Part shown: positions 1 to 21,700 of the stretch, piece after piece
How the letters are laid out: every line of letters starts with the position of its first letter
How positions within the stretch are numbered: the stretch's first letter is position 1
DNA from: Promethearchaeia archaeon
GTDB taxonomy: Archaea > Asgardarchaeota > Lokiarchaeia > Sigyniarchaeales > SOKP01
DNA: 64,000 nt
NCBI GenBank assembly: GCA_029856085.1
Contig: JAHQWI010000184.1
Coordinates: 2,972 to 66,971 of the forward strand
Direction: 5' to 3'
Notes under the pieces: generated by a model
Told to the model about the DNA's origin: nothing
Databases searched by the model: none
The model's input: only the letters and a program-made list of their open reading frames with translations
Translations under genes and position numbers: made by a program

Positions 1-2
1 AA

Positions 3-224
3 TTATATAAGAAACATAAGAACCTTACAAAGAAATTTATCATCATGGATACACAATTGAATGACTTAATTGATCAATTAAATAAAACAGGTTACTTTAA
101 ATTTGTCATGAGATCAATTATTGCTCGTAGAAAGCAATTATTTCAAAGATGGAAAGAAATAGTTGTTTGGATTCTGTATTTTCCCCTCTACTTTAATAAA
201 TATGTTAGAAAATATTATACTTAA
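3..224 (+). CDS. 3' end of an unidentified CDS that starts upstream of the window
   Basis: Frame 3 is open from the window edge to TAA 222-224 (...FQRWKEIVVWILYFPLYFNKYVRKYYT*). No family recognised. Confidence 0.3.
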   Translation, partial: LYKKHKNLTKKFIIMDTQLNDLIDQLNKTGYFKFVMRSIIARRKQLFQRWKEIVVWILYFPLYFNKYVRKYYT

Positions 225-396
225 TCTAAAATATAGATCTAAATAGTACTTTCTTTAATTATATTGAACTAAAAAGACAATTTTGTTATCCTTTTCTATT
301 AATTCAAAAGAAATTAATAGAATCAATAATTCTCTATAAAATAAGTTATACGCTATTAATTTATTAGTTTTAAGTATATACTAAAGGTGATATTAC

Positions 397-1161
397 ATAA
401 AAGCAATAATCATAGCAGCAGGACCAAGTACTAGATTACGACCCTTCACAGAATATAAACCTAAATGTTTATTAGAAATTGAAGGGAAAACTATTCTTAA
501 TCGAGTTTTAGAAACTTTTTATAGTTGTGGGATTAATGAAATAGTTATTGTTCGTGGATATCAGAAAGAAACACTTAATTTACCGAATATTAGATACTAT
601 GATAATGATAACTTTTATAACAATAACATATTAGAATCCCTTTTTTACGCTGAACCAGAAATGGACGAAGAGTTTATTTTTACTTATTCAGATATCCTTT
701 ATAGTAAAAAAGTTGTTCAAAAACTCTTAGAGTCAGCTCATGACTTTAGCCTAATAATAGATACAGCTTGGAGACAACGTTATGAAAATCGGACAAAACA
801 CCCTACAGATGAAGCAGAACTAGCGATTGTAGAGAATGGTAAAGTAATGCATCTTTCAAAGTTTTTTAACCCTGATGCGGCTTATGGTGAATTTATAGGC
901 CTAGGGAAGATATCTAAGACGGGAGCAGAAATTTTTACACGAAATTATAACCGTGCGAAATACAATAAAACTTGTAAGTTTGCAGGACGATTCCATGATT
1001 CTACCACCTTCGAAAAGGCGTATTTAACAGATATGTTTGAAGAACTTATTGATAGAGGATATCCTATTTATTCAGTAGATATCCAAGAAGGTTGGGTCGA
1101 ATTAGATACAGACGAAGATTATGAATATGCTATACAATTAATAAAAGATGGAAAAATATAA
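397..1161 (+). CDS. Nucleotidyltransferase (LicC/PntC-like cytidylyltransferase), stand-alone paralog of the C-terminal domain of the PEP mutase fusion; probable AUA start
   Basis: The ORF track starts at ATG 661, but the frame is open from 391 (in-frame TGA at 388-390). That stretch encodes the nucleotide-binding N-terminus KAIIIAAGPSTRLRPFTEYKPKCLLEIEGKTIL. GGTGA at 386-390 lies 6 nt before ATA 397. The C-terminal half matches residues ~405-569 of ORF 2697-4406 (YSDIL, EF-x-G, IDRG, GW-x-E). Confidence 0.75.
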   Translation: MKAIIIAAGPSTRLRPFTEYKPKCLLEIEGKTILNRVLETFYSCGINEIVIVRGYQKETLNLPNIRYYDNDNFYNNNILESLFYAEPEMDEEFIFTYSDILYSKKVVQKLLESAHDFSLIIDTAWRQRYENRTKHPTDEAELAIVENGKVMHLSKFFNPDAAYGEFIGLGKISKTGAEIFTRNYNRAKYNKTCKFAGRFHDSTTFEKAYLTDMFEELIDRGYPIYSVDIQEGWVELDTDEDYEYAIQLIKDGKI

Positions 1162-1191
1162 TAATACAAAATTCGTTAAGGTAAATAAAAT

Positions 1192-2505
1192 ATGAATGAA
1201 AATTTAGATTCTAGTAGTGAGGCCGAGGTAAAGAAAACATATAAATCATGGAGAAATCGTATATTTTTTACGGTTTGGATTACATATATGATCTACTATA
1301 TTGGGCGTACAAATATTTCAATTGCGAAACCATTTATTATGGACGAATACGGAATTTCACTTGGAGTAATGGGATTAATAGGCACAATTTTTTTCCTTGC
1401 TTACGCCTTCGGACAATTTGTTAATGGATTTTTGGGTGATAAAATAGGTGCGAGACGATTTATTACAATAGGATTAATAATTTCAGCCGTCATTAATATA
1501 TTTATGGGGGTTGCTTTTGACTTCATCTGGGTTGCATTTTTACTATGGGGTTTGAATGGATATTTCCAATCAATGGGATGGGCTCCTTCTGTAAAAACTA
1601 TTGCAAATTGGCATCCTGTAGAAGAAAGAGGGAAATGGTCAAGTAGACTTGCTACATCATATTTGCTTGGAGGTGTCGTATCATGGATTATCGCTATATT
1701 TATAACTGATACCCTTAGTTTAAATTGGCGATTTTCTTTTATCATTCCCGGAATAATCATGGTATTCATGGCGATTCATTTTTATGTAAGGAATAGAAAC
1801 GCTCCTGAAGAATGCGGTTTACCAACTATTGAAGAAGAATATGAGGGTAAAATTGGAATGGGTGATTTCCGTGACGATGAATTTGTAGGTTTTAAGTACA
1901 CTGCCAAAACAGTTTTCTTTACAAAAACCGTTCTTTTTGCTTCTTTTGGTTTATTTTGTTTGAATATGGTTAGATATGGATTAACAGACTGGCTTCCATA
2001 TTTACTCAGTCCTGAAGTAACTGGTGCTGCTGAATTTGCTGTATGGAAATCTATATTCTACCCAATTGGAGGTACAATTGGAGTTCTTTTAGGTGCGTGG
2101 ATTTCTGATAAATTTGCTGGAAAAAGAAGAATACCTGTGATATGTGCTTTTTTTATCTTATTATCCCTAGTATTATTAATTTATACATTACTTCCCCCGC
2201 TTGACATGGTTTTTGGAATTCCTGTATTGATTTTAATTGGGATTTTGAATTTTGCACCGCATGCACTTCTAGTTGCTACAATACCTATGGAATTTGGTAC
2301 AAGAAAAGCAGCGTCTGCTGCTACGGGATTTATTGATGGCTGGGGATATATTGGAGCTGCAATTACAACTTTTACTTCAGCAACCCTTATTGAGGTTGCA
2401 GGTTCTTGGGCTGCTTTTTTACTTTGGATAATCGTAGCATTAATAGGGGGTTTAGTTCTACTAGCGGATTGGAAAAGTCTTCCAGAAAGAAAAGAGTTTT
2501 TATAA
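1192..2505 (+). CDS. MFS transporter of the organophosphate:phosphate antiporter family (GlpT/UhpC-like)
   Basis: Multi-TM hydrophobic profile. GDKIGARR and LNGYFQSMGWAPSVKTIANWHPVEERGKWSS resemble the GlpT/UhpC signature LNGWFQGMGWPPC...ERG. Confidence 0.75.
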   Translation: MNENLDSSSEAEVKKTYKSWRNRIFFTVWITYMIYYIGRTNISIAKPFIMDEYGISLGVMGLIGTIFFLAYAFGQFVNGFLGDKIGARRFITIGLIISAVINIFMGVAFDFIWVAFLLWGLNGYFQSMGWAPSVKTIANWHPVEERGKWSSRLATSYLLGGVVSWIIAIFITDTLSLNWRFSFIIPGIIMVFMAIHFYVRNRNAPEECGLPTIEEEYEGKIGMGDFRDDEFVGFKYTAKTVFFTKTVLFASFGLFCLNMVRYGLTDWLPYLLSPEVTGAAEFAVWKSIFYPIGGTIGVLLGAWISDKFAGKRRIPVICAFFILLSLVLLIYTLLPPLDMVFGIPVLILIGILNFAPHALLVATIPMEFGTRKAASAATGFIDGWGYIGAAITTFTSATLIEVAGSWAAFLLWIIVALIGGLVLLADWKSLPERKEFL

Positions 2506-2696
2506 GAACAATATTATAAAATTAATTTTTTTTTCTCTATTTTTATTTTGAACAATAATATAAATGGAAAACCTAATTAATTTTAGATAATTTAAGTAAT
2601 TAAATTAATTTTAGGTTTAAAATAATATTCTAAACATTTCACAAACCAAAAATATATTACATAATTTATGAGATTTAAACCTGACTGAACATATGA

Positions 2697-4406
2697 GTGA
2701 CAATAATGGAATTAAAAAAAACCAGTGGTATATTACCATATTTAAGAAGAGGATTGTTAAAAGAATTACTTCAAAAGAAAAAGATTGTTAAAATCATAGA
2801 GGCACACAACGGTCTTAGCGCGATAATTGCAAATAATATAAAAGAAAGTTATCAAGATGAAATTCTTGAATTTGATGGATTTTGGGTTAGTAGTTTTACT
2901 GATAGTGCTGCTAAAGGTTATCCTGATATCGAAGTAATTGGATTAGAATCAAGATACGAAACAATTAGACAGATTTTAAATAGCTCAAATAAGCCATTAA
3001 TAATCGACGGAGATACTGGTGGCGAAGCTGCAAATTTTGAATATTTCATTCGTGCTTTAGAAGATATGGGAGTATCAATGGTTATTATTGAAGATAAAAA
3101 ATTTCCCAAAAGAAACAGTTTAGAAAGCGGGACTATTCAAGATCAAGAAGAACCTGAGGTGTTTGCTACAAAAATTAAAAGAGGGAAAGACATTCAAATC
3201 TCTGATAATTTCATGATAGTTGCGCGCATTGAAAGTTTGATTTCTGGTTCAGGATTAAAGGATGCGATATATAGAGCTAAAAAATATTTGATGGCAGGTG
3301 CAGATGGGATAATGATTCATTCAAAGCAAAGGGATCCTAAAGAAATCTTAGATTTTGCCAGGGAATACGATAAATTATCAAGAGATTTAGGTTTCAGAAA
3401 ACCACTGGTTTGTGTTCCAACTACATATAACACAATTACTGAAGATGAATTGGTAGATCATGGATTTAATATCGTTATATATGCAAATCATCTATTGCGA
3501 GCTGCTCATAAAGCAATGAAAGAAACTGCCTCAATCATTCTGAAGAACAAAAGAACATTTGAAGCGGAATCTATGTGTAGTCCTGTGAAAGCTGTTTTTA
3601 AAGATGTTGGGTTCTTAGATGTCAAAGAAAAAGATTTAAAATATATAAAAGGACCAACAAAAGTAATAATCCCTGCTGCAGGGAGTGATCAAGATTTCAT
3701 TATTCCAAAAGGAATGACACCTTTAAATGGTAAGCCTGTTCTCCAACGACAAATAGAAACCTTAAACAATTGTAAAATTAAAGATATTATTGTTATAAGA
3801 GGATATGGAAAAGAGGAATTTAGTATGGGGGGTGCAAGATATATTGATAATGATGAGTATGAGAAGTTTTACATCTTATATTCTTTATTCAAAGCTGAAG
3901 AGGAAATGGAGGGGGGCTTTATTTTCATATATTCAGATATATTGTTTAATGACCAAATAATAAAAAATCTTCTCAGCACGAAAGGAGATATTATCTTAGT
4001 TCTCGATAATTCTTATACATATCATAAACATAAAATTGATAAAAATCTCGAACTCGTTCTAACGAAGAATAAACCAAGTGAACAAACAAGGGATCTCTAT
4101 CAATTAGAAAACGAAATTATCAGAATAGGAAGAAGTATTAATATGGATATGGCAGATTATGAATTTACGGGGATAGCTTATTTCTCGGAATATGGTGTTG
4201 AAATCATCAGAAAAATATATAATGAGTGCAAACTGAGCCATAAGGGTAAATTTCATGAAGCAAATTCATTTGAAAATGCCTCTTTTATAGATCTTATACA
4301 AGAGGTAATAGATAGAGGGTTTAGAGTAGATATTTTGGAAGTACATAAAGGATGGTTTGAGATTCATAATAAAAAAGATATTGAAATTGCTGAAAGATTA
4401 ATATAA
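2697..4406 (+). CDS. ppm: Phosphoenolpyruvate phosphomutase fused to a C-terminal cytidylyltransferase domain
   Basis: The N-terminal ICL/PEP-mutase fold carries DGDTGG and the PEP-mutase-diagnostic EDKxxxxxNS motif (EDKKFPKRNS, nt 3090-3119). The C-terminal ~240 aa form a nucleotidyltransferase fold (VIIPAAGSDQ..., YSDILF, IDRGF, GWFEI). The start may be GTG 2697 or ATG 2706. Confidence 0.85.
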   Translation: MTIMELKKTSGILPYLRRGLLKELLQKKKIVKIIEAHNGLSAIIANNIKESYQDEILEFDGFWVSSFTDSAAKGYPDIEVIGLESRYETIRQILNSSNKPLIIDGDTGGEAANFEYFIRALEDMGVSMVIIEDKKFPKRNSLESGTIQDQEEPEVFATKIKRGKDIQISDNFMIVARIESLISGSGLKDAIYRAKKYLMAGADGIMIHSKQRDPKEILDFAREYDKLSRDLGFRKPLVCVPTTYNTITEDELVDHGFNIVIYANHLLRAAHKAMKETASIILKNKRTFEAESMCSPVKAVFKDVGFLDVKEKDLKYIKGPTKVIIPAAGSDQDFIIPKGMTPLNGKPVLQRQIETLNNCKIKDIIVIRGYGKEEFSMGGARYIDNDEYEKFYILYSLFKAEEEMEGGFIFIYSDILFNDQIIKNLLSTKGDIILVLDNSYTYHKHKIDKNLELVLTKNKPSEQTRDLYQLENEIIRIGRSINMDMADYEFTGIAYFSEYGVEIIRKIYNECKLSHKGKFHEANSFENASFIDLIQEVIDRGFRVDILEVHKGWFEIHNKKDIEIAERLI

Positions 4407-4426
4407 CTAATTTTTAAAAATGCGAT

Positions 4427-5569
4427 ATGAATATGAATGAATTTATTGGGAACGGTTCCATTAAAAATCTTCATAAAATTCTCTCAGAAAATAATTATAA
4501 GAACATCTTTTTTATTACAGGTAAATCGCCTTTAGAACAGGAGAATATTGACAAAACTTTAAAAATAATTAAAAATATGTCTCAGTTTTTTCACTACAAT
4601 GATATAGCCCCGTCTCCTAGTGTTGAGGGTGTGGAAAAAGCCCTAAATTTATTTAATAAGGGTAATTTCGATTTGGTTGTCGCCATGGGAGGAGGTTCTG
4701 TTTTAGATATTGGTAAAAGTGTATCAGTTTTTTCTGCAAACGAAGGAAAAATTGAAGATTTTCTTTTAAAGAATAGAAGAATTAAAAAAAAAGGAACCCC
4801 CTTAGTATTAATACCCACAACAGCAGGAACGGGGAGTGAAGCAACTCATTTTGCTGTAATTTTTATTAAAAAAACAAAGTATTCCTTAGCAAATGATAAA
4901 TACATACCCGGTGATTATGTGATTATAGATCCAGAATTAACATATAGCCTTCCAAAGAGGGTGACTGCATATACAGGTATGGATGCATTAAGCCAAGCAA
5001 TCGAATCATATTGGAATATTAATTCTACAAAGGATTCAAAAGAATACGCAAGGAAAGCAATAAAACTCATAATGAATAATTTGTTAAAAGTTGTTCATAA
5101 TCCCGATAAAGAATCTAGATACAATATGGCAATAGCCGCGAATTATGCAGGTAAAGCAATAAATATAACAAAGACTACTGCTTGTCATGCTATTTCATAT
5201 CCTATTACTTCATTTTTTAACATTCCTCATGGTCAAGCTGTTGCTTTGACTTTACCTTCTATGGTTGTATTCAATTCAGAAGTTGATAACGATGATGTGT
5301 TAGATTTACGTGGATGTGATTATGTAAAAGAAATAATGAAAGATTTGATCACTTTAATAGGAACCTCTACATTTAATGAAGCAAAAGAAAAGATCAATGA
5401 AATCATAAAGAATATTGGATTAGAATCAACATTATCAAATTTAGGAATAAAAAGTCAAGAAGAAATTGAAATTTTAATAAAGAACGGATTTAATCCTGAT
5501 AGGGTTAAAAATAACCCGCGGTTATTAACAGAAACTCATCTAAGAAAGATTTTAGAGGGGATTAGATGA
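4427..5569 (+). CDS. Iron-containing (group III) alcohol dehydrogenase, probable phosphonoacetaldehyde reductase
   Basis: Fe-ADH motifs are present: VAMGGGSVLDIGK, PTTAGTGSE and the His-rich metal site (CHAISYP...PHG). It lies between ppm and ppd. Its stop overlaps the next start (ATGA at 5566-5569). Confidence 0.75.
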   Translation: MNMNEFIGNGSIKNLHKILSENNYKNIFFITGKSPLEQENIDKTLKIIKNMSQFFHYNDIAPSPSVEGVEKALNLFNKGNFDLVVAMGGGSVLDIGKSVSVFSANEGKIEDFLLKNRRIKKKGTPLVLIPTTAGTGSEATHFAVIFIKKTKYSLANDKYIPGDYVIIDPELTYSLPKRVTAYTGMDALSQAIESYWNINSTKDSKEYARKAIKLIMNNLLKVVHNPDKESRYNMAIAANYAGKAINITKTTACHAISYPITSFFNIPHGQAVALTLPSMVVFNSEVDNDDVLDLRGCDYVKEIMKDLITLIGTSTFNEAKEKINEIIKNIGLESTLSNLGIKSQEEIEILIKNGFNPDRVKNNPRLLTETHLRKILEGIR

Positions 5570-6282
5570 AGGTTATAATATTAAATGCAGGAATAGGTAA
5601 AAGATTAGCACCATTAACTTATAAAATGCCAAAATGCCTTATTAAAATAAGTAATAATAATACAATATTGGATCATCAGCTAAAGAATATAATAAAACTA
5701 GGCTTTAAAGATTTCATTTTGCCTACTGGTCCTTTTGAGGATCAAATTATAAATCATATTGATAAAAATTATCCTAATATTAATGTACAGTATGTTAACA
5801 ATCCGGTTTATAATAAGACAAATTATATTTATTCTTTATATTTAGCTAAAGAGATTATTGATGACGACGTTTTATATTCTCATGGGGATTTAATCTTCTC
5901 TGAAAATTTAGTAAAACTTTTACTTGATTCCAAAGCTAGTGATTGCGTTTTGATTAATAAAGAAATCCCCCCTCCAGTAAAAGATTTTAAGGCGATTATA
6001 TTAAACGATAAAATAAATAAAATAGGAGTAAACCTATTTGGAGAAAACACAGCCTTTTTGGCTCCATTATACAAATTGTCTAAAGAATTTATGATACAAT
6101 GGTTAACTCATATTGAAAATTTTGTTAAAAATAACAGAGTAAATTGTTATGCGGAAGATGCTTTAAATGAAATTTTGGATATTCTTCTACTAAAACCTTG
6201 TTATTATAATGAATTTTGTGTTGAAATTGATGATCATGAAGATTTAGAAGGAGTAAAGAATTATCTATCTAAAAATAAATAG
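5566..6282 (+). CDS. Nucleotidyltransferase (LicC/MobA-like NTP transferase)
   Basis: N-terminal MKVIILNAGIGKRLAPLTYKMPKCLIKI (G-x-G-x-R-L loop). Translationally coupled to the upstream ADH by a 4-nt overlap. Confidence 0.7.
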   Translation: MKVIILNAGIGKRLAPLTYKMPKCLIKISNNNTILDHQLKNIIKLGFKDFILPTGPFEDQIINHIDKNYPNINVQYVNNPVYNKTNYIYSLYLAKEIIDDDVLYSHGDLIFSENLVKLLLDSKASDCVLINKEIPPPVKDFKAIILNDKINKIGVNLFGENTAFLAPLYKLSKEFMIQWLTHIENFVKNNRVNCYAEDALNEILDILLLKPCYYNEFCVEIDDHEDLEGVKNYLSKNK

Positions 6283-6299
6283 ATCACTAGTTAAAATAG

Positions 6300-7436
6300 A
6301 TGAAAATGATATCTTGTAGAGATTTTATTAATATCTTAATTAAACATGATTTAACTTTCTTTACTGGAGTTCCAGATTCGACTTTTAAAGATTTGATGAA
6401 ATTTTTATCAGAAAGTGATATAAAAAGTCTTGAGAATATTATAGCATGTAATGAATGTGAAGCCATTGCATTAGCTTCAGGTTATCATCTAGCTACAAAT
6501 AAAGTTGGGATTGTTTATATGCAAAATTCCGGGCTTGGAAAAGCAGTTAATCCTCTTACATCTTTATGTGATCCTGATGTTTATTCAATTCCGATCCTTT
6601 TGATGATTGGATGGCGTGGGGAACCAGGAAAAAAAGATGCACCTCAACATAAAAAAATGGGTAAAATTACACTACAACTACTAGACACACTTCAGATACC
6701 TTATACTATTTTGGATGCTGATTTGGATTATGTTGATAAAGAACTAAAGAAAGTAAAAAATCATTTTAATGAGCAAAAGGGACCATACGCTTTTATTTTT
6801 CGTCGTAATTTCTTTAAAGAGTATGAAATGAAGAAAAAGCCATTAAATAATTACTCATTAACTACTAACGATGTAATTCATTTGATTGTGGATAATTTAG
6901 ACAATACTGAAGTAATTGTTTCTACAACGGGTTATATCTCAAGAGAATTATTTGAATATAGTGAATCAAAAAATATGGATCATAATAAAAGTTTCTATAA
7001 TATAGGATCTATGGGTTGTGCTAGTTCTATTGGGTTGGGTATAGCGCTCCAAAAACCAAATAAAAGGGTAATAATATTTGATGGAGATGGAGCGGCAATC
7101 ATGCAGATGGGGGCTTTTACTACAATTGGAAAGAACTCTCCACCAAACTTTGTTCATATAATATTTGATAATGAAGTTCATGAATCAACTGGAGGTCAAC
7201 CTACAAATTCCTCGATAGTTGATTTTTCTGCAATTGCAAAAGCGAGTAATTATAAATTAACGCTTTTTATACAAACGCGAAAAGAATTATTGGATTGCAT
7301 GAACCAAATTAAAAATAGACAGGGACCAATTTTAGTTAGAATAAAAATTAATCTTTCACATGATAAAGAACTAAAAAGACCAAACAAACTTCCAAAAGAA
7401 TATAAGGAAGAATTTATGAAGTATTTAAAAATTTAA
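6300..7436 (+). CDS. ppd: Phosphonopyruvate decarboxylase (thiamine-diphosphate dependent)
   Basis: GVPDSTFKDL N-terminus, GSMGCASSIGLGIAL, and the TPP-binding GDGAAIMQMG...IIFDNEVHESTGGQ motif. A size of ~378 aa is typical of single-chain Ppd. It sits in the ppm cluster. Confidence 0.8.
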   Translation: MKMISCRDFINILIKHDLTFFTGVPDSTFKDLMKFLSESDIKSLENIIACNECEAIALASGYHLATNKVGIVYMQNSGLGKAVNPLTSLCDPDVYSIPILLMIGWRGEPGKKDAPQHKKMGKITLQLLDTLQIPYTILDADLDYVDKELKKVKNHFNEQKGPYAFIFRRNFFKEYEMKKKPLNNYSLTTNDVIHLIVDNLDNTEVIVSTTGYISRELFEYSESKNMDHNKSFYNIGSMGCASSIGLGIALQKPNKRVIIFDGDGAAIMQMGAFTTIGKNSPPNFVHIIFDNEVHESTGGQPTNSSIVDFSAIAKASNYKLTLFIQTRKELLDCMNQIKNRQGPILVRIKINLSHDKELKRPNKLPKEYKEEFMKYLKI

Positions 7437-7551
7437 AAGAAAAGAGTTTAATTGCAATTCTCAGAATTTCAGTTTTATGAATATTTTTATAGGATATGAG
7501 ATTTTTTATGATAAAATTTAATTTAAATTTGCTTTAATGTGTATTAGATAA

Positions 7552-9837
7552 ATGAGTGAAATTAGACTAAAATTTAATAGAATTCTCTTCTTCATCCATT
7601 CTAGAATTAATTGCTTCATCTTCTTAGTTTCTATAATCTCTATGATGTTTGTTTTTTTAAAATTAATTGATTTTAATACGATTATAGGAATATCAGATAT
7701 AATTGGTCTTGAAATTATATTTGAATTTATAGTAATTTTTAGTTCAATCTTTGTCATATTATTTTTACCTTCTTACCCTATTTTCTTCAAGCTACTAAAT
7801 AAAAGTGAATTTACCTCCTTAGAGAAATTAGGATTAACCATTGTTATCAACTCAGCTTTCTATATCTTTTTAGGGTATTTTGGGTATTGGATTGGAGCCT
7901 CAATAACAGGTCTCTTTTTCTTTTATGGAACATTGATTTTATTTCTTATATTTATTTGTTATATAGCATATAATGAATTTAAAAAGGAAACTTATGTATA
8001 TTTTAAACCAAGAAAACCATCAATAAATAATCTCGAGAGATTACAGCAATTTTCCCTCTTTAAATACTTTAAAAATAAAATAAATTTAAACTTATTCTTA
8101 CTTATTGCTTTTATTTCCTTAATTTGTATTCTTAATATCACTAAATTTAGTGTTTTTGTTGGAACGGACCCATGGCTTCACATTCTTAATAGTAGAATAA
8201 TAACTGAAGAAAATATTCTTCCCCTAAAAGGATATCATGGAACGATGGGTATTAGTATTTTTGGAGCAGTTATCAATTTTTTTTCTGGAGTAAGTCATAT
8301 TTTAATTCCTAAATATTTTGTAATTTATACATTCTTTCTTTCTGCTATTATCTTCTATAGTATCTCTATGAGGATTTTTAAAAGGAAAAATCTAGCTATT
8401 TTTAGCGTTTTTATCATTGAGTTTTCTTCATTGGGATTTTCTAACATGATGCTTCAGTATTGGCCTTCAGGATCTGCATTAATTAAATGTTTAGCAATAT
8501 TTCTCCTTCTTTATATTAGATTGCAGAAATTCGTTCAATTGGAGCGCCCAACTAAAAGGGAGATACTTTCAAACATCTTTTTGATCTATATTTTAACTAT
8601 TTTGATATTCACTAGTGCTGTGCTCACACATGTAGTTACATCTATTTTCTTTTTATTTTCATTTTTGTGGGTATATCTAATTTATTTCTTGAAGGATTAT
8701 AGAAGGGGAATAGATTTTATTTTCTTATGTGGCCTAGTGGGGATTTTTTTGATTTTAAATATTTTTGGCATAGGAAGTGGTCATTATTGGTTTTTTATCC
8801 CACTTAATCTCTCTTGGTATTTTTTACTTCTAATTGGCGGTGTGGGATGTATAGCAGGTGGAATTTTATTATGGAAATTACAGAATTCAATTAATTTCAC
8901 CAAGGGTAGGTTTAAGTTGGTAATAACAGGAAAGCGAGACAAATATTTCAAAAAAATTGAAGATAAAGCAATAATTCCTCTTATCTTCAGTATTTTAATA
9001 GCAATAACCATTAGTTTATTGATTGTAAATCTGATTTGGATAGAAATAGAAATTACTAATATATTTTACGTATCTGAAATCATATTACTTAGTGCTTTTG
9101 CTGTATGGGGCTTAATAGTCTACCAAAAGAAGCCAAGAGGAAAGCCATTATTTATTTGGGGTATAGGACTTTCTATTCTATTAGGTGTAGGATTTGTTTT
9201 CAATATACTGATATTAAGTAATATGATTTGGCAGAGAATTTTATATCTAATTCCTCCGATTATTGTAATTGGATTTATTTCTTATATATATAAAATTATT
9301 AAGATAAAGAAGATTGGAACATTTCGCATGAAATTCATAATTTTCATTATTATAACTTTCTCATTATTAACCACTTACTTTTTTGAATCTGTTAATTTTG
9401 ATGTTTTTACACTAAGAAGAAGAGATATAAGCCCGATTCAATGGTATTCGAATAATACTTCCGATAAGAATGTCTTAATTACTGAATTCGGTTGGAAAAA
9501 TGTATTTAAATATTATGGTTATGATCATAATAATACAAATGGTACTCTTGCTTTTGAAGGCAATTTTTACAATCTAAAATATGAAATTGATTTATTTCCC
9601 CCAGATAATCATCTTTATGAAAATAAGACCAATATTTTACAAGAAATTAAAGAAGATTATAATACAGATGTATATATTATTTTTTCTGATACTTATATTA
9701 TTAATAAAGGATTTGAGTTGTTTGGACACTTATCACAGGATGAATTAGAAGAATACTACAGTCTTCCTTATTTAGATAAAATTTGTTCTTCTAAAACAGA
9801 GGGAGGAGGGGAAACTCCTATATTTTGGGTCATTTAA
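7552..9837 (+). CDS. Large polytopic membrane protein with a C-terminal soluble domain; possible GT-C-type glycosyl/oligosaccharyl-transferase-like enzyme
   Basis: About 20 hydrophobic segments precede a ~150-aa hydrophilic C-terminus. The loop motif GTDPWLHILNSR resembles the acidic first-loop motif (DP-x-x-H/Y...R) of GT-C enzymes. No WWDYG motif is present, so it is not called AglB. Confidence 0.35.
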   Translation: MSEIRLKFNRILFFIHSRINCFIFLVSIISMMFVFLKLIDFNTIIGISDIIGLEIIFEFIVIFSSIFVILFLPSYPIFFKLLNKSEFTSLEKLGLTIVINSAFYIFLGYFGYWIGASITGLFFFYGTLILFLIFICYIAYNEFKKETYVYFKPRKPSINNLERLQQFSLFKYFKNKINLNLFLLIAFISLICILNITKFSVFVGTDPWLHILNSRIITEENILPLKGYHGTMGISIFGAVINFFSGVSHILIPKYFVIYTFFLSAIIFYSISMRIFKRKNLAIFSVFIIEFSSLGFSNMMLQYWPSGSALIKCLAIFLLLYIRLQKFVQLERPTKREILSNIFLIYILTILIFTSAVLTHVVTSIFFLFSFLWVYLIYFLKDYRRGIDFIFLCGLVGIFLILNIFGIGSGHYWFFIPLNLSWYFLLLIGGVGCIAGGILLWKLQNSINFTKGRFKLVITGKRDKYFKKIEDKAIIPLIFSILIAITISLLIVNLIWIEIEITNIFYVSEIILLSAFAVWGLIVYQKKPRGKPLFIWGIGLSILLGVGFVFNILILSNMIWQRILYLIPPIIVIGFISYIYKIIKIKKIGTFRMKFIIFIIITFSLLTTYFFESVNFDVFTLRRRDISPIQWYSNNTSDKNVLITEFGWKNVFKYYGYDHNNTNGTLAFEGNFYNLKYEIDLFPPDNHLYENKTNILQEIKEDYNTDVYIIFSDTYIINKGFELFGHLSQDELEEYYSLPYLDKICSSKTEGGGETPIFWVI

Positions 9838-10625
9838 ATCTCGTAATCTCCGAGAAATAAATCATCCAATTTTTCTCGTAAAATCTGTCTTTTATCCCCT
9901 TCAATCTTTATTAATTTTGGTAATTTCCCTGCTTGACCAATTTTATCTTCTCTACTAATAAAAGTACCTATAACCCCATCAATATCATCAGCAATGTCTA
10001 GTCCTTTTTTTATTGATTTCTCAACATCTTTACCTTTTACTGAATTTGCCACTTTAGTTGCTGCTGCATCAGCTAGAGCCGCGTTTGTGGCAAAAATAGT
10101 AACAGCATCAGCTTGTCCAAAACTAATAGCATGCCCAATGGTTGCAGAACTTGTGCCAACACCAATTGGACAATCCTTTTTTTCTATTAAAAATCCAATA
10201 TTCAAATTCAATTCATTATTTCCAGCATACAGAGCTATATTCATAGGTTTTATAGAATCGATAGCAATTTCACCCCCATTTTCAACTAAGGCAATTTTGG
10301 CTTTAACAAAATCGGTGTCTTCTTCCTCATCTCTATTTTTCATAACTTCTAACATGAGATCGGCTAGGGCTCCCGCAACAGCAGCCATAGGACCTACATC
10401 ACAAACATAGGCAGCATCAGCCATTAGTTTAATAACTCTTATTTCTGTATTCACATTAATAGGAGATAGTGAAGTTAAAAAATGATTATTTTTTAGTACG
10501 TATTTCTCTAAATTTCCCCGATGTAGATAAAAAATTTTTCTCGCTTTTAATATTGCAGTTTTGGATTCTGAAATGATAGTTATATCAGATTCTTTTTCTG
10601 AAAAATGAGTTTTATATACTTTCAA
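9834..10625 (-). CDS. UPF0280 / ApbE-superfamily protein
   Basis: CDVGPMAAVAGALADLM and the Gly/Ala-rich C-terminal half resemble archaeal UPF0280 (ApbE-like) proteins. Its 3' end overlaps the convergent upstream gene by 4 nt. Confidence 0.45.
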   Translation of the reverse strand: MKVYKTHFSEKESDITIISESKTAILKARKIFYLHRGNLEKYVLKNNHFLTSLSPINVNTEIRVIKLMADAAYVCDVGPMAAVAGALADLMLEVMKNRDEEEDTDFVKAKIALVENGGEIAIDSIKPMNIALYAGNNELNLNIGFLIEKKDCPIGVGTSSATIGHAISFGQADAVTIFATNAALADAAATKVANSVKGKDVEKSIKKGLDIADDIDGVIGTFISREDKIGQAGKLPKLIKIEGDKRQILREKLDDLFLGDYEI

Positions 10626-10733
10626 TTTGGGTATCTTTTTAATTCAAAATCTAAGTGATATAATGAGTTTAATAACAAATAAATATAAATAAATTGGGTT
10701 TCATTATTTAATCAAAAATAAAATTTCCAAATT

Positions 10734-11225
10734 ATGAGTCAAATTAATTACGAGGAAATTATCGGACAATTAAAATCTGATTTAAATGCTGAATGTGCTA
10801 TAGCAAATAAGTATGGAGTCATATTAGGAACTAAGATTAAAGAATTATCTAAGGGAAAAGTTATTCCTCAAAAAATTCTTTCGCTAATTTCAAATTCAAA
10901 AGAGATTGCTAAGGAACTGAATTTAGATAAGATAAATTCATTTGCCATCGAAGCTCAGGAAAATAATTATTTATTTTCTTTTTCAGAAAAATTGATCCTG
11001 ATTTCAAAACTAGATCTAAGTGTTAATTTAGCTAAATTTATGCCTAGTATAAGTGTTTTTTTGAAAAAATTAAGTGAAAGCTCGAAGGATGAGGAGATTA
11101 AAGAATTCTCAATCTTTAATTTTTCTAAGGAGTTATCAAAAATAGAAGAAACTCTAAAACAAGAAGAAATAAAAAAGGAAAAATATTCAATTATAAAAGA
11201 TTTAGTAAGACACGTCTCTAGCTAA
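10734..11225 (+). CDS. Roadblock/LC7 (MglB-like) domain protein
   Basis: The alpha-beta-alpha pattern (ECAIANKYGVILG...INSFAIEAQENNYLFSFSEKLILISKLD) is typical of Roadblock/LC7. It lies directly upstream of a small-GTPase gene. Confidence 0.45.
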   Translation: MSQINYEEIIGQLKSDLNAECAIANKYGVILGTKIKELSKGKVIPQKILSLISNSKEIAKELNLDKINSFAIEAQENNYLFSFSEKLILISKLDLSVNLAKFMPSISVFLKKLSESSKDEEIKEFSIFNFSKELSKIEETLKQEEIKKEKYSIIKDLVRHVSS

Positions 11226-11368: not shown

Positions 11369-13207
11369 ATGGAAGATGAATCTACCAGAGGGGAAGATAG
11401 TGTGGAATTCCATGATTATTATAAATTTAGAGTATCATACGTAACACAAAAGAGTTTAGGAATAATTGTTTTATTTGTTACTGGTTTAACAGATAAATTT
11501 GATAATATTAAAAAGGAATTAGTGAAATGTAGGAAAGAATTTATTAATTTATTTGAAGAAATCCTACAACATCGTTTTGATGCAAAAACTTTCGAAGTGT
11601 TTGATCCAATAGTAGATTCAATCCATAAAAATCTTCGACCTAAGATATCTTTGATTGGTTTTTCTGGAGTAGGAAAAACAACTATAACTAGATTAATCAG
11701 AGCAGAAGAAATACCATTGCAACATATACCTACGATTACTGGTGACATAGCTACTGTAAGAATAGGAAAATTACATTTTCATTTATGGGATTTTGCTGGA
11801 CAGGAACAATTTAGTTATCTTTGGAATAATTTTATTAAAGGTAGTGATGCTGCTCTTTTAATTACTGATTCAACTTTAGAAAATGTTGAAAAAAGCAAGT
11901 TTTTCTTAGAATTAATAAAAGAACAATCCCCACATGCGCACACAGCAGTAATCGGAAACAAACAAGATTTAGGAGGAGCTATTAAATCTGCGCAAATTGA
12001 ACGGATTTTAGGGTTAAAAACATACTCTATGATCGCAAAAAAACCTGAAAATCGGGACAAGATGATTCAAATTATTGCTGATATATTGGAAATGAGCGCA
12101 GAGGTTTCACCCTTATTAAAACCGCTTTTAGAGCGAGATAAATTAATAGAAGAAGCGACAGGAGCATTGAAAAGTGCAGATTTCGAAAAAGCTGCATTTC
12201 TTTTTGATAAGATTAGTGATTTGTGCTTAGAATTGGGAGATGATTCATTAGGTAAAGAATTTTTTGAGAAATCACAAAAAATTAAAACTATGTTAGAACA
12301 AGTTGGGGCTCCTCAACCAACACCAGCTTTTCCAATAGAAACAGATAGGGCTGAACAATCTAAAGCTTCAGGAAAACCAAAATTGTCAGAAGAAGTTATT
12401 GTATCAAAGCCAACAATAGCAATTGAAACATCAGAAATGCCTAAGCCCCCTGCGCCTATTCTTCCACCTCCAAGACCAATAAAAGAACAAACAGTAGATC
12501 ATAATATAGCAGAATTACCAAAAGAAAAACTAGATTCTACAATAGATTGGATTAAATCTAGCAAGCCTATACAAGAACAAAATAAAGTGATGGAATCTGA
12601 AATTGAAAATAATAATATCGGTTTGAAATTAAATCCCGAAGATTATATAGTAAAAATTAGACCAAAAACTATAGGAGCTGTACCGAAAGATGCTAAATCA
12701 AAGTTGAAAACATCTGCATATGGTCATGTTAAAAATATACCCTCCTTAAAAGAAGAAGCAATTGTTAGTCAAACAAAAACGCAAGAACCTGTATCAATAA
12801 AAGTGTCTGAAGAAGTGTCAACAGTAAGATCACCCTCCCGCCCTTCAGAACTATTCAAGACGGATACCCAATCGATATCTACGCAACCACTAGAGACTCA
12901 TGAACAATTAAAATCTACTGTAACACCTAAAGACATAATTCCAGAGACAATTTCTAAAGATGTTATTGAAACTGAACGACCGATATCTACGATTGATAAA
13001 ATTCAAATAGACCATGCGAAAAAAACACTGATAGAATTAAAATTAAAAAAAGCTGATTTATACAAAATGGCTTTAGATTTTGATATAAAAGAACTTAAAG
13101 GTGAAATTTCTGAAGAGGAACTTGAAAATAAAAAGAAGAAAATAAAGGAATATGAGAAAAAAATAGATATTCAGATTCAAGAGATGCAAAAACTATTAAA
13201 AGATTAA
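11369..13207 (+). CDS. Multidomain Ras-superfamily small GTPase with a long disordered P/S/T/E/K-rich region and a C-terminal coiled coil
   Basis: G1 GFSGVGKTT, G3 WDFAGQEQF and G4 GNKQDL are present. There is a ~90-aa N-terminal domain, a ~300-aa low-complexity region and a terminal coiled coil. The frame is open upstream to 11258 (VFIYKGEELLYYRHFGKAL...), so the true start may be ATT 11264, 6 nt after GGTGA 11253-57. Confidence 0.8.
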   Translation: MEDESTRGEDSVEFHDYYKFRVSYVTQKSLGIIVLFVTGLTDKFDNIKKELVKCRKEFINLFEEILQHRFDAKTFEVFDPIVDSIHKNLRPKISLIGFSGVGKTTITRLIRAEEIPLQHIPTITGDIATVRIGKLHFHLWDFAGQEQFSYLWNNFIKGSDAALLITDSTLENVEKSKFFLELIKEQSPHAHTAVIGNKQDLGGAIKSAQIERILGLKTYSMIAKKPENRDKMIQIIADILEMSAEVSPLLKPLLERDKLIEEATGALKSADFEKAAFLFDKISDLCLELGDDSLGKEFFEKSQKIKTMLEQVGAPQPTPAFPIETDRAEQSKASGKPKLSEEVIVSKPTIAIETSEMPKPPAPILPPPRPIKEQTVDHNIAELPKEKLDSTIDWIKSSKPIQEQNKVMESEIENNNIGLKLNPEDYIVKIRPKTIGAVPKDAKSKLKTSAYGHVKNIPSLKEEAIVSQTKTQEPVSIKVSEEVSTVRSPSRPSELFKTDTQSISTQPLETHEQLKSTVTPKDIIPETISKDVIETERPISTIDKIQIDHAKKTLIELKLKKADLYKMALDFDIKELKGEISEEELENKKKKIKEYEKKIDIQIQEMQKLLKD

Positions 13208-18760: not shown

Positions 18761-21700
18761 ATGCAAAATCCAGAAGAATTAGCTCAAGAAGCTTTAAAAT
18801 TTTTAGAACTAGCTCAAAAGTTTGAAGAAGAAAAAATGGCAGAAGAGGCAATCTCAAATTATCAAAAAGCAGTGGAATTTCTGAAAAAAAGCGGATATTT
18901 AATGCATAGAATTAATGAGATATATGAAAGAATAGAGGAATTGAAAGATTTCATAAAACAGAAAAAGTTATATCAACAGACTCAAATTAAGACTCAAGTA
19001 GAACAACTCCAAGACCAAGCATTTGCCTTATTAGAAGGGGCTAAAAAATTAGAATTTGATGGCTTTTTTGAAGATGCTATCCAACAATATTTATCGGCTA
19101 TTAATTTATTAAATCAATCTGGTTGGTCTGAAACTCAGTTAGAAAACTTAAGATTAAAAATAAAAGATCTTTCCGATACCTTAAAAAAGGAACAAGGTAT
19201 TCATCAAAAACAACAAAAAGAACTGACTCCTCCTGAGGAATATCTACAAAAAATAGAAGATATAAAACCTGAAGTTGTTGGTATGTTTGGGGAAACAGCA
19301 AGTAGAGAAAAAGCAGAATCTATAGCCCGATATAGATCTAGGAAGATGCAAGAGGAAGAAACACAAAATCATGCGTTTGCTCATATAGATAAAGCTAAAG
19401 AATTTGAAAAAGAAAGAAAATTCGATAAGGCAATATTGAATTATGAAAGCGCAATAGATTTATTAAATTCTATAGGGTGGGATGAACAAACTCAAAAAAT
19501 TAAGGTTATTATTGAGAAGCTTAAGAAAGACAAACAACAATTTGAAGACTTTCAACAAAAACAAGCTAGCATTGAAATAATAGGTAAAACAACAAGTGAA
19601 GAATCAATTGAAAAATCAGAAACAGAATTGGAAAAAGCTAAACTAATTGAATTTGAAGAAAAAAAGAAGAGAGAAGAAAATATTCAAGCAAGTGCGTTTA
19701 ACTTAATTAATATTGGAAAAAGATTCGAAAGGGAGAAAGATTATGAAAATGCCATTCAAAAATTTGAACAAGCCGTTGATTTATTCAAATCAATAGATTG
19801 GGATTCATATATTCAGCCTGTTATTAATTTAATAGAAGATATTAAAGCAAGGAAGGAAAGAGAACAAAGAGCAGGGCAATTAAAAGAAAAAAGACAAAAG
19901 GATATTACAATTCTTCAAAAATCTATATATAGAAAGCAAAAGGAAGAAATTTTTCAATCAGCAAAGGAATTGGATTTACGAAGACGACAATTTGAAGAAA
20001 AAAGAGAAGATGAAACAAAGAAGGAAAAACATTTTTTTACAATTTTAAGTAATGCTGATAGCATTTTACAGTCAAAAAATTATGAAGAGGCGATTAATGA
20101 ATATCAGGATGCTTTAAAACTTATAGAAGAATTGGGTCCTGGTTGGGAAACTTATGTTTCTAATATTAATAATACCATTTCAAATGTACAAAAATTGAAA
20201 AATTCACAACTAAAGAAAGAATATGAAGTTCAACAGAAACTAGAAAAAAGAGAAATTGAGGAATTGGAGTTTCAAAAACAAATTGCTAATCAATTAGATA
20301 AAGAGCGAGAGCATTTAAAACAAAAAGAAATTGTATTAAAAGATAAAGAAAAAGAAATAATATATTTAGAACAACGTAAAAATGTTGCATTTGAATCTTT
20401 AGATTCTGCTATAAATTATATAAACCAAGGGGATTATGATAATGCGATAATAGCTTACCAAAATGCAGGTAATATATTTGCTGAAATTCAATGGAAGGAT
20501 GAAATTCCTATAATAGAAAAGTCTATACTAAAAGTTGAAGAACTACGAAAAAACCAAAAAATTCTAAAACAAAAAAGAATGCAAGAAACGTTGGAAAGAC
20601 AGAAAGAAGATGAAGCATTCCAAAAACAGATTTCTCAATATTTAAAACAAGAACGTGAAAAATTAAAGAAAGGAGAAATAGAATTAAAAAAACGTGAGGA
20701 AGAACTAAAATATCGTGAAGAAAGAAGAGAAGCAGGATTTAAATTGCTTGAGCAAGCTCAAGATGAAGTAACCAAAGGAAATTTTGATAAAGCTATTGAG
20801 ATACTTCATTATACCACAAACTTCTTCGCTGAAGCTCAATGGCAAAATGAAATTAGTTTAATTCAAGATTCGATAATTGAAATTGAAAATAAAAAAAGAG
20901 AAGCAGAAATACAAGAGCAGATAAAATTACAAACAAAATTGGAAAGAGATAAGCAAGACAAAGCTTTTCAAAAGTTGGTAACATATGAGATTAAATCACG
21001 TCAAGAAAAACTAAAAAAACAAGAGATTATCGTTAGGGAACGCGAAAAAGAAATCGCATTTCGTGAGAAGAAAAAAGAAGAAGCGTTTAGTTTGCTAGAT
21101 GAAGCGAAAAAATTAGTATCTGTTAATAACTATGATGCTGTTCTTGAAATATATTATAGAGTATTAAACTTGTTTGCCCAGATTCAATGGAAAGAAGAAA
21201 TTTCAATATTAAAAGAAGCAATACAAGATATAGAGGAAAAGAGGAGGGAAGAAATACTTTTTAAACAGAAACAATTGCAAATAGCTGTTAAAAAAGAAGT
21301 AGATGATAAAGTTTTTATCGAAAAAATTAAATATCAGAGAGAAAGAGAAAAACAAGAAGCTCTTACAGATTTAGAATTTATTGAAAAGCAAAAGAAAATA
21401 TCTGCTCAGAATTTAACTAAACAACAGGAAGCTTTTATAATGATTGAAGGAGGAGAAAATCTACTTCAAGTTGAGAAATATGAGGAGGCTGCAAAAAATT
21501 ATCGGAAAGCAATAGAGATATTAAAAGAGATTGGCTGGGGAACGGATTATTTGAAATTATTAAAGGAAACAATATTCACAATACAATCTAGAAAATTAGA
21601 AAAAGAAAAAGAGACCCAAATTGAATTTGAATTAAAATTAAAACATCAAAAAGAAGAAGAACAATTTCAAAAGAAAATTTCTGGATATCTGAAAACAGAA

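Follow-up and report, generated by a model that had tools for sequence, protein, structure and literature searches.

A cluster of six genes (positions 397 to 7436) near the left end of a 64,000-nucleotide stretch of DNA from a Promethearchaeia archaeon (contig JAHQWI010000184.1; the whole stretch is called the window below) was originally predicted, from its sequence, to be an operon for phosphonate biosynthesis. The reading favored here, with a probability of about 70%, is that the cluster is the right-hand part of a cell-surface phosphonyl-tailoring locus of a Lokiarchaeia-type archaeon, of the type that uses 2-hydroxyethylphosphonate (2-HEP or HEP). Among described systems, bacterial Pnt clusters with PntC follow the same logic: a phosphonate is made, activated with cytidine monophosphate (CMP), and used to decorate the cell surface (Rice et al. 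2019, PMC6697681). Like the window, these clusters have a phosphoenolpyruvate (PEP) phosphomutase (Ppm) with the motif EDKxxxxxNS fused to a PF12804 domain, extra stand-alone LicC/PntC-like transferases, and glycan or lipid genes as neighbors. However, characterized PntC enzymes act on 2-aminoethylphosphonate (AEP) and their clusters have an AEP transaminase; here there is instead an iron-containing alcohol dehydrogenase (Fe-ADH), which would give HEP. In addition, the host here is an Asgard archaeon, an antiporter of the organophosphate:phosphate antiporter (OPA) family is paired with one transferase, and the fused domain lacks the catalytic signature. According to the same paper, Fom1 makes CMP-HEP and PntC makes CMP-AEP, a PF12804 fusion is found in 33% of Ppm proteins from bacteria, and clusters that combine a fused transferase with a separate one had been noted previously. 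HEP-type neighborhoods account for 8.5% of those around ppm (PMC8942020).

The early steps of fosfomycin synthesis in Streptomyces, carried out by Fom1 (a cytidylyltransferase-Ppm fusion), Fom2 (a phosphonopyruvate decarboxylase, Ppd) and FomC (an Fe-ADH), are the same four: PEP to phosphonopyruvate, to phosphonoacetaldehyde, to HEP, and to CMP-HEP. The cultured archaeon Lokiarchaeum ossiferum also shares the N-terminal PF01467-Ppm architecture of Fom1. In contrast, the fused domain of the window is C-terminal, has a PF12804 (LicC) fold, and is degenerate; its context is that of a surface glycan rather than an antibiotic, and equivalents of Fom3, Fom4, and FomD were not found in the window. 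An archaeal Ppm-Ppd-Fe-ADH route to HEP is reportedly present in the methylphosphonate cluster of Nitrosopumilus maritimus, said to have been described by Metcalf and colleagues in 2012. That cluster reportedly has a nucleotidyltransferase and sulfatase-like genes nearby, for which esterification of phosphonate onto exopolysaccharide is said to have been proposed, and it reportedly includes MpnS, the enzyme converting HEP to methylphosphonate. Unlike it, the window shows no MpnS/HEPD-like gene among its scanned open reading frames (ORFs), and it comes from another archaeal phylum, a lineage of anoxic sediments.

Two further systems resemble the parts of the locus that would handle transport and activation. 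AepP, the OPA-family permease for AEP (2AEP) of Pseudomonas putida (Murphy et al. 2021, PMC8316502), is related to GlpT and, like the transporter of the window, keeps the phosphate-binding but not the glycerol-binding residues. The likeness is one of residue pattern; AepP is catabolic, whereas the transporter here is paired with a cytidylyltransferase in a biosynthetic or decoration context. The Lic phosphocholine pathway (transporter LicB, kinase LicA, LicC, and transferase LicD) likewise imports a precursor, activates it with a LicC-fold enzyme, and transfers it to a surface glycan, and LicC is the best solved relative of two transferases of the window, NT1 and NT3. Here, however, the transporter is an OPA-type member of the major facilitator superfamily (MFS) rather than a LicB-type permease, no LicD homolog was seen, and a kinase would be unnecessary if a phosphate or phosphonate were imported.

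A preprint reports an N-terminal Ppm fused to a C-terminal cytidylyltransferase in Methanoperedens Borg elements (bioRxiv 10.1101/2024.11.05.622173), and cold-seep surveys count phosphonate biosynthetic gene clusters (BGCs), without detail, in six archaeal phyla (PMC11051675). A search of the literature on Asgard, Lokiarchaeota, or ossiferum with phosphonate found BGC-count surveys but no account of this pathway. The type of pathway is known from bacteria; the lineage is new, and the core holds little surprise for a phosphonate specialist. The refinements beyond this core are the degenerate fused domain, a portable module of NT1 and the antiporter, and an Asgard-specific enzyme of the glycosyltransferase C (GT-C) fold.

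In the proposed pathway, the Ppm domain would convert PEP to phosphonopyruvate, and Ppd would convert this to phosphonoacetaldehyde, its decarboxylation pulling the unfavorable Ppm step forward. Fe-ADH would then yield 2-HEP, from which NT3, translationally coupled to Fe-ADH, would make CMP-HEP using cytidine triphosphate (CTP). Neighboring transferases, CDP-alcohol-phosphotransferase-like and sulfatase-like in the closest relatives and TagF-like in two other lineages, may use CMP-HEP to transfer HEP to a lipid-linked glycan or to a lipid, and the downstream GT-C enzyme and a Wzx-like flippase may handle the HEP-bearing product. As a salvage branch, NT1 and the OPA antiporter would most likely import an external organophosphonate or organophosphate against phosphate and cytidylylate it, feeding the same decoration. 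This scheme builds on family assignments, motifs, synteny, and selection; all of its substrates are predictions, as are the specificity for cytidine, the acceptor, and the direction in which the transporter works. If it is true, a C-P compound that resists phosphatases coats the surface glycans or lipids of many Lokiarchaeia, a group that counts among the closest known relatives of eukaryotes within the prokaryotes. This would bear on the chemistry of their unusual envelopes and protrusions, on how they interact with viruses and syntrophic partners, and on where the phosphonates of anoxic marine sediments come from. The same gene set in cultured L. ossiferum makes surface phosphonylation in the lineage testable.

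Conservation and core enzymes

In a conservation scan using one genome per species, the full-length Ppm fusion is present at 67-92% identity in 21 archaeal species represented by metagenome-assembled genomes, nearly all labeled Promethearchaeota or Promethearchaeia. The next Ppm matches are bacterial (Fretibacterium, Clostridia), with 44-48% identity over the Ppm domain only. A set of Ppm, Fe-ADH, NT3, and Ppd is shared by 21 Promethearchaeota species and by L. ossiferum, whose proteins are 40-58% identical to their window counterparts. The Ppm of L. ossiferum is Fom1-like, with an N-terminal CTP_transf_like domain (PF01467) followed by a Ppm domain containing EDKVGPKRNS. Among related loci of Lokiarchaeia (Loki loci), 12 keep the order NT1-MFS-PpmNT-FeADH-NT3-Ppd, six are without NT1-MFS at the corresponding place, and L013 and L014 have the order Ppm-Ppd-FeADH-NT3; the nearest bacterial loci combine Ppm with Fe-ADH, Ppd, and an NT3-like domain. 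The G+C content is about 30% throughout the window, the same in the cluster as in its surroundings, and the cluster is therefore taken to be a long-term resident. Recent horizontal acquisition was considered and rejected, given this G+C content, the synteny across many Loki species, and the low identity (45-48%) of the nearest bacterial Ppm; thus, any transfer would be ancient. Together with the matches of the Ppm fusion to Promethearchaeota, the presence in the window of genes for an Arf-family GTPase, an MIT/TPR protein, and an IFT52-GIFT protein indicates that the host was correctly described as an Asgard-type archaeon.

The Ppm domain scores 349.8 bits with the NCBIfam model TIGR02320, above the equivalog cut-off of 319.55, compared with 158.5 bits for phosphonopyruvate hydrolase, 112.9 for methylisocitrate lyase PrpB, and 44.5 for CPEP mutase. 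It also matches PF13714 (E 1.9e-51), and its best solved relatives are the PEP mutases 5unc and 1m1b. The motif held to be specific for PEP mutases is indeed present in this ORF, as EDKKFPKRNS (amino acids (aa) 132-141, nucleotides (nt) 3090-3119). When the domain is aligned to Mytilus 1m1b, residues D58, D85, D87, E114, N122/S123, R159, and H190 are kept, and the stretches GYPD, DGDTG, ARIES, and IHSK align with the residues of 1m1b that are ligands of Mg2+ and substrate. By score and by nearest structure, then, the domain does not group with methylisocitrate lyases, the outcome that the original prediction had named as contrary to it, and family membership predicts a PEP phosphomutase. The start of the protein is ambiguous, either GTG at 2697 or ATG at 2706, giving a fusion of 569 or 566 aa. 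The identification of Ppd holds as well: this protein scores 444.5 bits with TIGR03297, above the equivalog cut-off of 312.5, carries both thiamine pyrophosphate domains, TPP_enzyme_N (PF02776) and TPP_enzyme_C (PF02775), and has a GDGA...DNE motif at aa 262-295. Family membership again predicts its activity, that of a phosphonopyruvate decarboxylase.

The assignment of Fe-ADH to the route stands in part. Both Fe-ADH domains, PF00465 and PF25137, are found, and the top NCBIfam model is the phosphonate-type TIGR03405 (Phn_Fe-ADH; 203.6 bits), but the score is below the cut-off of that model and the assigned role of the protein therefore rests on context. Nineteen Loki loci reach far enough to show the position of this gene, which lies directly 3' of the Ppm fusion in 17 and after Ppd in L013 and L014; it thus adjoins Ppm and/or Ppd in all 19, and does so in the bacterial loci and in L. 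ossiferum. The protein is predicted, by this context, to be a group III Fe-ADH acting like PhpC, not a proven member of TIGR03405.

NT3 matches PF00483 (E 3.7e-12), and its best solved relatives are LicC (E 3.6e-10) and then PntC (E 5.7e-6). Compared with the consensus GXG(T/S)RX4-8PK, which includes Arg15 and Lys25 and is taken from Rice et al. (PMC6697681), the NT3 signature reads GIGKR-x8-PK (5584-5634), with Lys at the T/S position, and the C-terminal E-x-D is kept. For NT3 and NT1, the comparison with LicC and PntC was made by sequence only; for the fused domain, it was made by predicted structure. NT3 is 35-42% identical to the N-terminal nucleotidyltransferase (NTase) domain of bacterial NTase-CTP_transf_like-Ppm triple fusions and appears, by this likeness, to be the counterpart of that domain. 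Its start codon overlaps the stop codon of Fe-ADH (ATGA at 5566-5569). Given this likeness and this overlap, NT3 is the best candidate for the HEP cytidylyltransferase, and it is predicted to be a CTP:2-HEP cytidylyltransferase by analogy with the precedents of Fom1 and PntC. A canonical NT3 accompanies the Ppm fusion in all 18 Loki loci extending far enough.

The predicted route from PEP through phosphonopyruvate and phosphonoacetaldehyde to 2-HEP fits these family assignments and the recurrence of the gene set in the 21 species and L. ossiferum. For the last step, from phosphonoacetaldehyde to HEP, the Fe-ADH family, the constant association with Ppm and Ppd, and the lack of a transaminase all point the same way. 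A catabolic reading, in which HEP or AEP would be imported and the pathway reversed, was rejected, since the decarboxylation by Ppd cannot be reversed and genes for phnW, phnX, and C-P lyase are absent.

The LicC-fold domain fused to Ppm

The prediction that the Ppm ORF is fused to a nucleotidyltransferase domain is borne out by a match to PF12804 (E 3.7e-7) and by an AlphaFold2 (AF2) model (mean predicted local distance difference test score, pLDDT, 90.7), for which the best Foldseek matches are LicC 1jyk (TM 0.71-0.78) and PntC 6pd1 (TM 0.75). The domain is a paralog of NT1, with 31-36% identity. Its signature, PAAGSDQDFIIPK at 3672-3710, is degenerate, reading PAAG-S-D-Q-D-FII-PK (G-S-D-Q-D-x3-PK); the second Gly, the T/S, and the Arg are all gone, and the spacer is five residues shorter. 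Near the C-terminus, WFEIH at 4353-4367 has EIH in place of E-L/I-D, that is, His for the conserved Asp. These changes are common to all 21 Loki orthologs and are also seen in 20 metagenomic relatives (40-62% identity), most of which have upstream Ppm-domain sequence or a PEP mutase annotation; eight of these 20 additionally lack the Lys. Stand-alone relatives from the same metagenomic search retain the GXG(T/S)R signature. Thus, of the three cytidylyltransferase copies originally counted in the cluster, NT1 and NT3 carry a canonical signature, but the fused domain lacks both the signature Arg and the E-x-D.

The fused domain is under purifying selection and is not decaying. Its dN/dS is 0.06-0.16 in six of seven pairs (the seventh has too few substitutions to judge), compared with 0.06-0.10 for the Ppm domain. 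It keeps the aspartate of YSD and contains a conserved insertion, DNSYxYHKHxIDK, which is not present in NT1. The conclusion drawn here is that this conserved module of the LicC fold is probably non-catalytic, or at least not a canonical transferase, and its role is most likely the binding of a ligand or partner rather than the catalysis of transfer.

This differs from how such proteins have been treated. In PMC6697681, Ppm-PF12804 fusions are counted as nucleotidyltransferases, and no statement on a lost catalytic signature of the fused domain was found in the passages searched. One could argue that the domain is an active, non-canonical cytidylyltransferase making CMP-HEP, with His or Lys of the HKH in the insertion replacing the Arg; NT3 and NT1 would then activate other glycan substrates, such as sugar-1-phosphates or glycerol phosphate. 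Such an activity would be in keeping with the strong conservation of the domain, its LicC/PntC fold, its YSD aspartate, and its insertion. It is judged unlikely, since the consensus Arg15 is missing in every member examined and a canonical NT3 stands alongside the fusion in every Loki locus that extends far enough. If fused domains of the C-terminal type are generally non-catalytic, the field-wide inference drawn from such fusions needs qualification.

A portable pair of NT1 and an OPA-type transporter

NT1 matches PF12804 (E 2e-13), and its best solved relatives are LicC 1jyk (E 1.4e-12) and PntC 6pd1 (E 2.3e-7). It was predicted as the first of the cluster's transferases, and its LicC/PntC-like character is supported: the signature is intact (nt 415-465, GPSTR-x8-PK, where Ser replaces the second Gly), and YSD and ELD are present. 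Its start, on the other hand, is ATA (397-399), the ATG found in 11 of 11 orthologs having been lost in this genome. A GGTGA lies at 386-390, seven bases upstream of the ATA; the first in-frame ATG is at 661, and starting there would remove the catalytic signature. The ATA is shared by a JGI metagenome contig (L041, 180-182), on which automated gene calling retained only a shortened NT1 ORF of 166 aa. NT1 orthologs in eight loci (L001, L002, L003, L006, L010, L018, L042, and L043) have an N-terminal extension of about 53-65 aa (MPKQKYSD...ISLLERIVRRYE), which the window copy is without. In the stand-alone metagenomic relatives P0030-P0033, the N-terminal extension is of another kind and resembles a small DNA-binding domain.

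The adjacent MFS protein matches PF07690 (E 2.5e-49). Its best NCBIfam models are all OPA-type and all score under their cut-offs: TIGR00881 (PgtP) at 232.3 bits (cut-off 407.75), UhpC at 210.8 (564), and GlpT at 191.7 (632). Its best solved relative, aligned along its length, is GlpT 1pw4 (E 2e-45). The phosphate-binding residues of GlpT, R45 and R269, are kept as R39 (in YYIGRTN) and R261 (in MVRYGLTDW), while those on the glycerol side are changed, K80 to Q and H165 to Y. By these comparisons, the protein appears to be a divergent member of the OPA family and an ortholog of no named transporter.

A T-run, ttttttttctctatttttatttt, follows the MFS stop codon at 2527-2549 and is likely an archaeal terminator, which would make NT1-MFS one transcription unit and the ppm genes another. 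No RNA family of Rfam matched within window positions 1-11000, and thus no riboswitch is expected in the 191-nt gap preceding ppm.

The two genes also travel together elsewhere. In Prometheoarchaeum syntrophicum MK-D1, an NT1-like gene abuts an MFS homolog within a glycan locus that includes TagF-like, GT2, DegT, NUDIX, sulfatase-like, and GT4 members, with no ppm within 10 kb. In L. ossiferum, an NT1-like/MFS pair is oriented divergently to a group of genes for an NT3-like protein, Fe-ADH, Ppd, and a Fom1-like CTP_transf_like-Ppm fusion. A nanoarchaeon (Nanoarchaeota MAG JADHYD010000001.1, L044:5115-11526) has adjacent NT1-like (42%) and OPA MFS (47%) genes with no ppm nearby; this locus further holds B12 radical-SAM, CTP_transf_like, CDP-alcohol phosphotransferase, and phosphodiesterase genes. 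Viewed by itself, the nanoarchaeal locus looks as if it served to take up and activate a scavenged phosphonate and perhaps to methylate it in the manner of Fom3. In a Patescibacteria genome, an MFS homolog lies beside a TagD-sized cytidylyltransferase and a TagF-like gene. NT1 and the OPA transporter are thus a portable pair, a module of their own. The transporter was correctly predicted to be of the OPA type, but rather than simply belonging to the cluster, it forms a conserved pair with NT1, probably has its own transcription unit with it, and occurs without a nearby ppm. Because its recurring contexts would combine import of an organophosphate or organophosphonate against phosphate, cytidylylation, and transfer to a polymer, the pair is read as a salvage branch: it probably takes up and activates a compound, possibly HEP, AEP, or glycerol phosphate, that feeds the same decoration.

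The predicted surface-glycan neighborhood

All six ORFs described for the cluster are found, on the forward strand and with the extents originally given (Table 1). The unit drawn as 397-7436 does contain these genes, but the functional unit extends further on both sides, to the sulfatase-like gene on the left and the GT-C gene on the right.

Table 1. Positions of the cluster genes and adjoining features in the window
Feature	Position	Strand	Basis
Sulfatase/alkaline-phosphatase-superfamily gene, 3' end	3-224	+	C-terminus matches PF00884 proteins of relatives
NT1, NTP_transf_3 protein	397-1161	+	Pfam domain
MFS protein, OPA-type	1192-2505	+	MFS_1; best curated models PgtP, UhpC, GlpT
T-rich run	2527-2549	+	Read from sequence
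Ppm domain of fusion protein (whole fusion ORF 2697-4406)	2697-3611	+	TIGR02320, PF13714
C-terminal LicC/PntC-fold domain of Ppm fusion	3654-4406	+	PF12804, predicted fold
Group III Fe-ADH, predicted phosphonoacetaldehyde reductase	4427-5569	+	PF00465, PF25137
NT3, LicC/PntC-like nucleotidyltransferase	5566-6282	+	PF00483
Ppd, predicted TPP-dependent phosphonopyruvate decarboxylase	6300-7436	+	TIGR03297
761-aa polytopic membrane protein, GT-C fold	7552-9837	+	Predicted structure

The sulfatase-like gene runs off the left edge of the window, which encodes its last 73 residues, ending in RSIIARRKQLFQRWKEIVVWILYFPLYFNKYVRKYYT and a stop codon. This C-terminus matches PF00884 proteins of about 500 aa located directly upstream in four relatives (L002, L003, L005, and L012); in relatives, the gene immediately precedes either NT1 or Ppm. 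Its product may be a phosphonyl transferase or an esterase. Further upstream, the relatives have GT4, a CDP-alcohol-phosphotransferase-like protein, another MobA-like transferase, and a Wzx-like flippase. In the closest relative, the CDP-alcohol-phosphotransferase-like protein (L002:606-1409) has the motif DEIDGEVAR-x8-G-x3-D-x3-H, in which the last Asp of the family signature is changed to His. In a Pfam survey covering 14 Loki loci, 87 flanking ORFs yielded epimerase/dehydratase (14), GT4 (10), sulfatase-like (10), flippase (6), GT2 (4), CDP-OH_P_transf (3), and TagF-like (2) proteins, and no aminotransferase family is among the 25 families listed for these ORFs. Methyltransferases are present in some Loki flanks. 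In L013 and L014, the core four genes adjoin a gene of the TagF-like CDP-glycerol glycerophosphotransferase family (E 1.5e-80), near dTDP-rhamnose-type genes, and of two TARA/ENA contexts of distant Ppm fusions, one showed the same theme of flippase, sulfatase, and GT4.

The 761-aa protein downstream of Ppd, whose gene has this position in 11 Loki loci, has no match in Pfam or NCBIfam, and a profile search of the PDB was empty. It has 161 homologs; all those with a named source are labeled Asgard, although most have no source name. The family has 112 representatives among 1.84 billion proteins. The top Foldseek matches of its AF2 model (pLDDT 80, pTM 0.84) are the oligosaccharyltransferase (OST) subunit STT3, PglB, AglB, and DPY19, with a probability of 1.00, E values of 3e-5 to 4e-3, and TM of 0.34-0.40. 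GTDPWxH (aa 204-210) is invariant in the family; the WWDYG motif was not found in the protein, the nearest conserved stretch being QWYSN. The model thus points to a GT-C fold outside the AglB/STT3 sequence family. The protein is a likely glycan transferase of the locus and possibly a second, non-AglB glycan transferase of Lokiarchaeia.

Taken together, the flanks hold the kinds of genes that accompany a surface polymer rather than a secreted antibiotic, and their richness in glycan-assembly genes is in line with the earlier guess that a glycan or lipid is decorated; transfer to such an acceptor is suggested by the neighbors. The product might alternatively be a free, secreted, antibiotic-like phosphonate, with transient cytidylylation and with the MFS protein as an exporter or self-resistance pump. 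Ppm, Ppd, Fe-ADH, and a cytidylyltransferase account exactly for the first steps of fosfomycin synthesis in Streptomyces (PMC6697681), the fusion in L. ossiferum is of the Fom1 type, and there is a transporter within the cluster. This alternative is nevertheless very unlikely: the window yielded no gene like Fom3, Fom4, or FomD and none for any other late stage; flippase, GT4, GT-C, epimerase, sulfatase-like, and TagF-like neighbors are typical of surface polymers; and the MFS protein is in a phosphate-antiporter family rather than the drug-efflux families and accompanies NT1 even where ppm is not nearby.

A different question is whether HEP is the end product. The aminotransferase and cupin/HEPD families had no match in the 31 window ORFs scanned outside the cluster, which include every listed ORF of at least 250 aa and four ORFs without any Pfam match; the original statement that the window has no aminotransferase and no MpnS/HEPD-like gene thus holds for the ORFs scanned by family profiles. 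Several known pathways pass through HEP (PMC8942020), and here too it could be no more than an intermediate, with AEP, methylphosphonate, or methylated HEP formed by tailoring genes elsewhere. The cluster is at the window edge and these results cover the window only; moreover, the nanoarchaeal NT1-like/MFS locus carries a B12 radical-SAM gene, and methyltransferases occur near some Loki clusters. Still, another phosphonate is quite unlikely as the end product, given that no AEP transaminase, MpnS/HEPD, or Fom3-like gene was found in the 64 kb, that no such tailoring gene is among the 25 families listed for the 87 flanking ORFs of the 14 loci, and that the tight coupling of Fe-ADH and NT3 suggests that HEP itself is activated.

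Several points weigh against a HEP-type surface-tailoring locus. The pathway is known here from genes alone. With the cluster at the window's left edge, the gene absences (AEP transaminase, hepD, mpnS, fom3), which apply within the 64-kb window, say little about the remaining locus; the candidate CMP-HEP transferases were seen in relatives only, at positions beyond the window. The Fe-ADH score is far under the TIGR03405 cut-off of 423.7 bits, and general alcohol dehydrogenase models are near-equal (lactaldehyde reductase, 200.7 bits). The nucleotide and substrate specificities of NT1 and NT3 are not readable from their sequences. Given its ATA start and the shortened call on the JGI contig, NT1 may be weakly expressed, not expressed, or on its way to loss here. 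Finally, since MK-D1 keeps NT1-MFS without ppm in its vicinity, the pair may act on something other than a phosphonate, for example glycerol phosphate.

A more far-reaching extension of the surface-tailoring reading, itself doubtful, joins three ideas: the fused domain as a pseudo-enzyme sensing CTP or CMP-phosphonate, NT1-OPA as shared phosphonate salvage, and TagF-like enzymes that polymerize CMP-HEP. The pseudo-enzyme, both here and in the metagenomic C-terminal Ppm fusions, would gate the committed step of C-P bond formation; an analogy is the inactive subunit GMPPA, which regulates GMPPB. Salvage would be shared by Lokiarchaeia and a DPANN nanoarchaeon, such that phosphonate head groups would be traded between sediment archaea. 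Because HEP has a free hydroxyl, TagF-like enzymes could polymerize CMP-HEP, and the result could be a teichoic-acid-like poly(hydroxyethylphosphonate) on the Loki cell surface.

Other genes of the window are of separate interest. A 163-aa protein without a Pfam match (10734-11225) is followed by an Arf/Roc-family small GTPase with a low-complexity tail of about 400 aa (11369-13207), and this pair is syntenic downstream of the cluster in most Loki loci extending that far. A 2120-aa protein of MIT and TPR repeats is encoded at 18761-25123, with strong GC and AT skew across the gene, and an IFT52 GIFT-domain protein, a eukaryote-like domain related to intraflagellar transport, at 43527-44921. 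The window also encodes a ThiF/E1-like protein (25444-26874), and a UQ_con and RWD (E2-like) protein lies beside the phosphonate genes of a relative (L013:16088-17740); both types are components of Asgard ubiquitin-like systems. Lastly, a 326-aa protein (35502-36482) consists of a PPDK_N domain alone, the ATP-binding domain of PEP-utilizing enzymes, and a link to PEP supply is possible.

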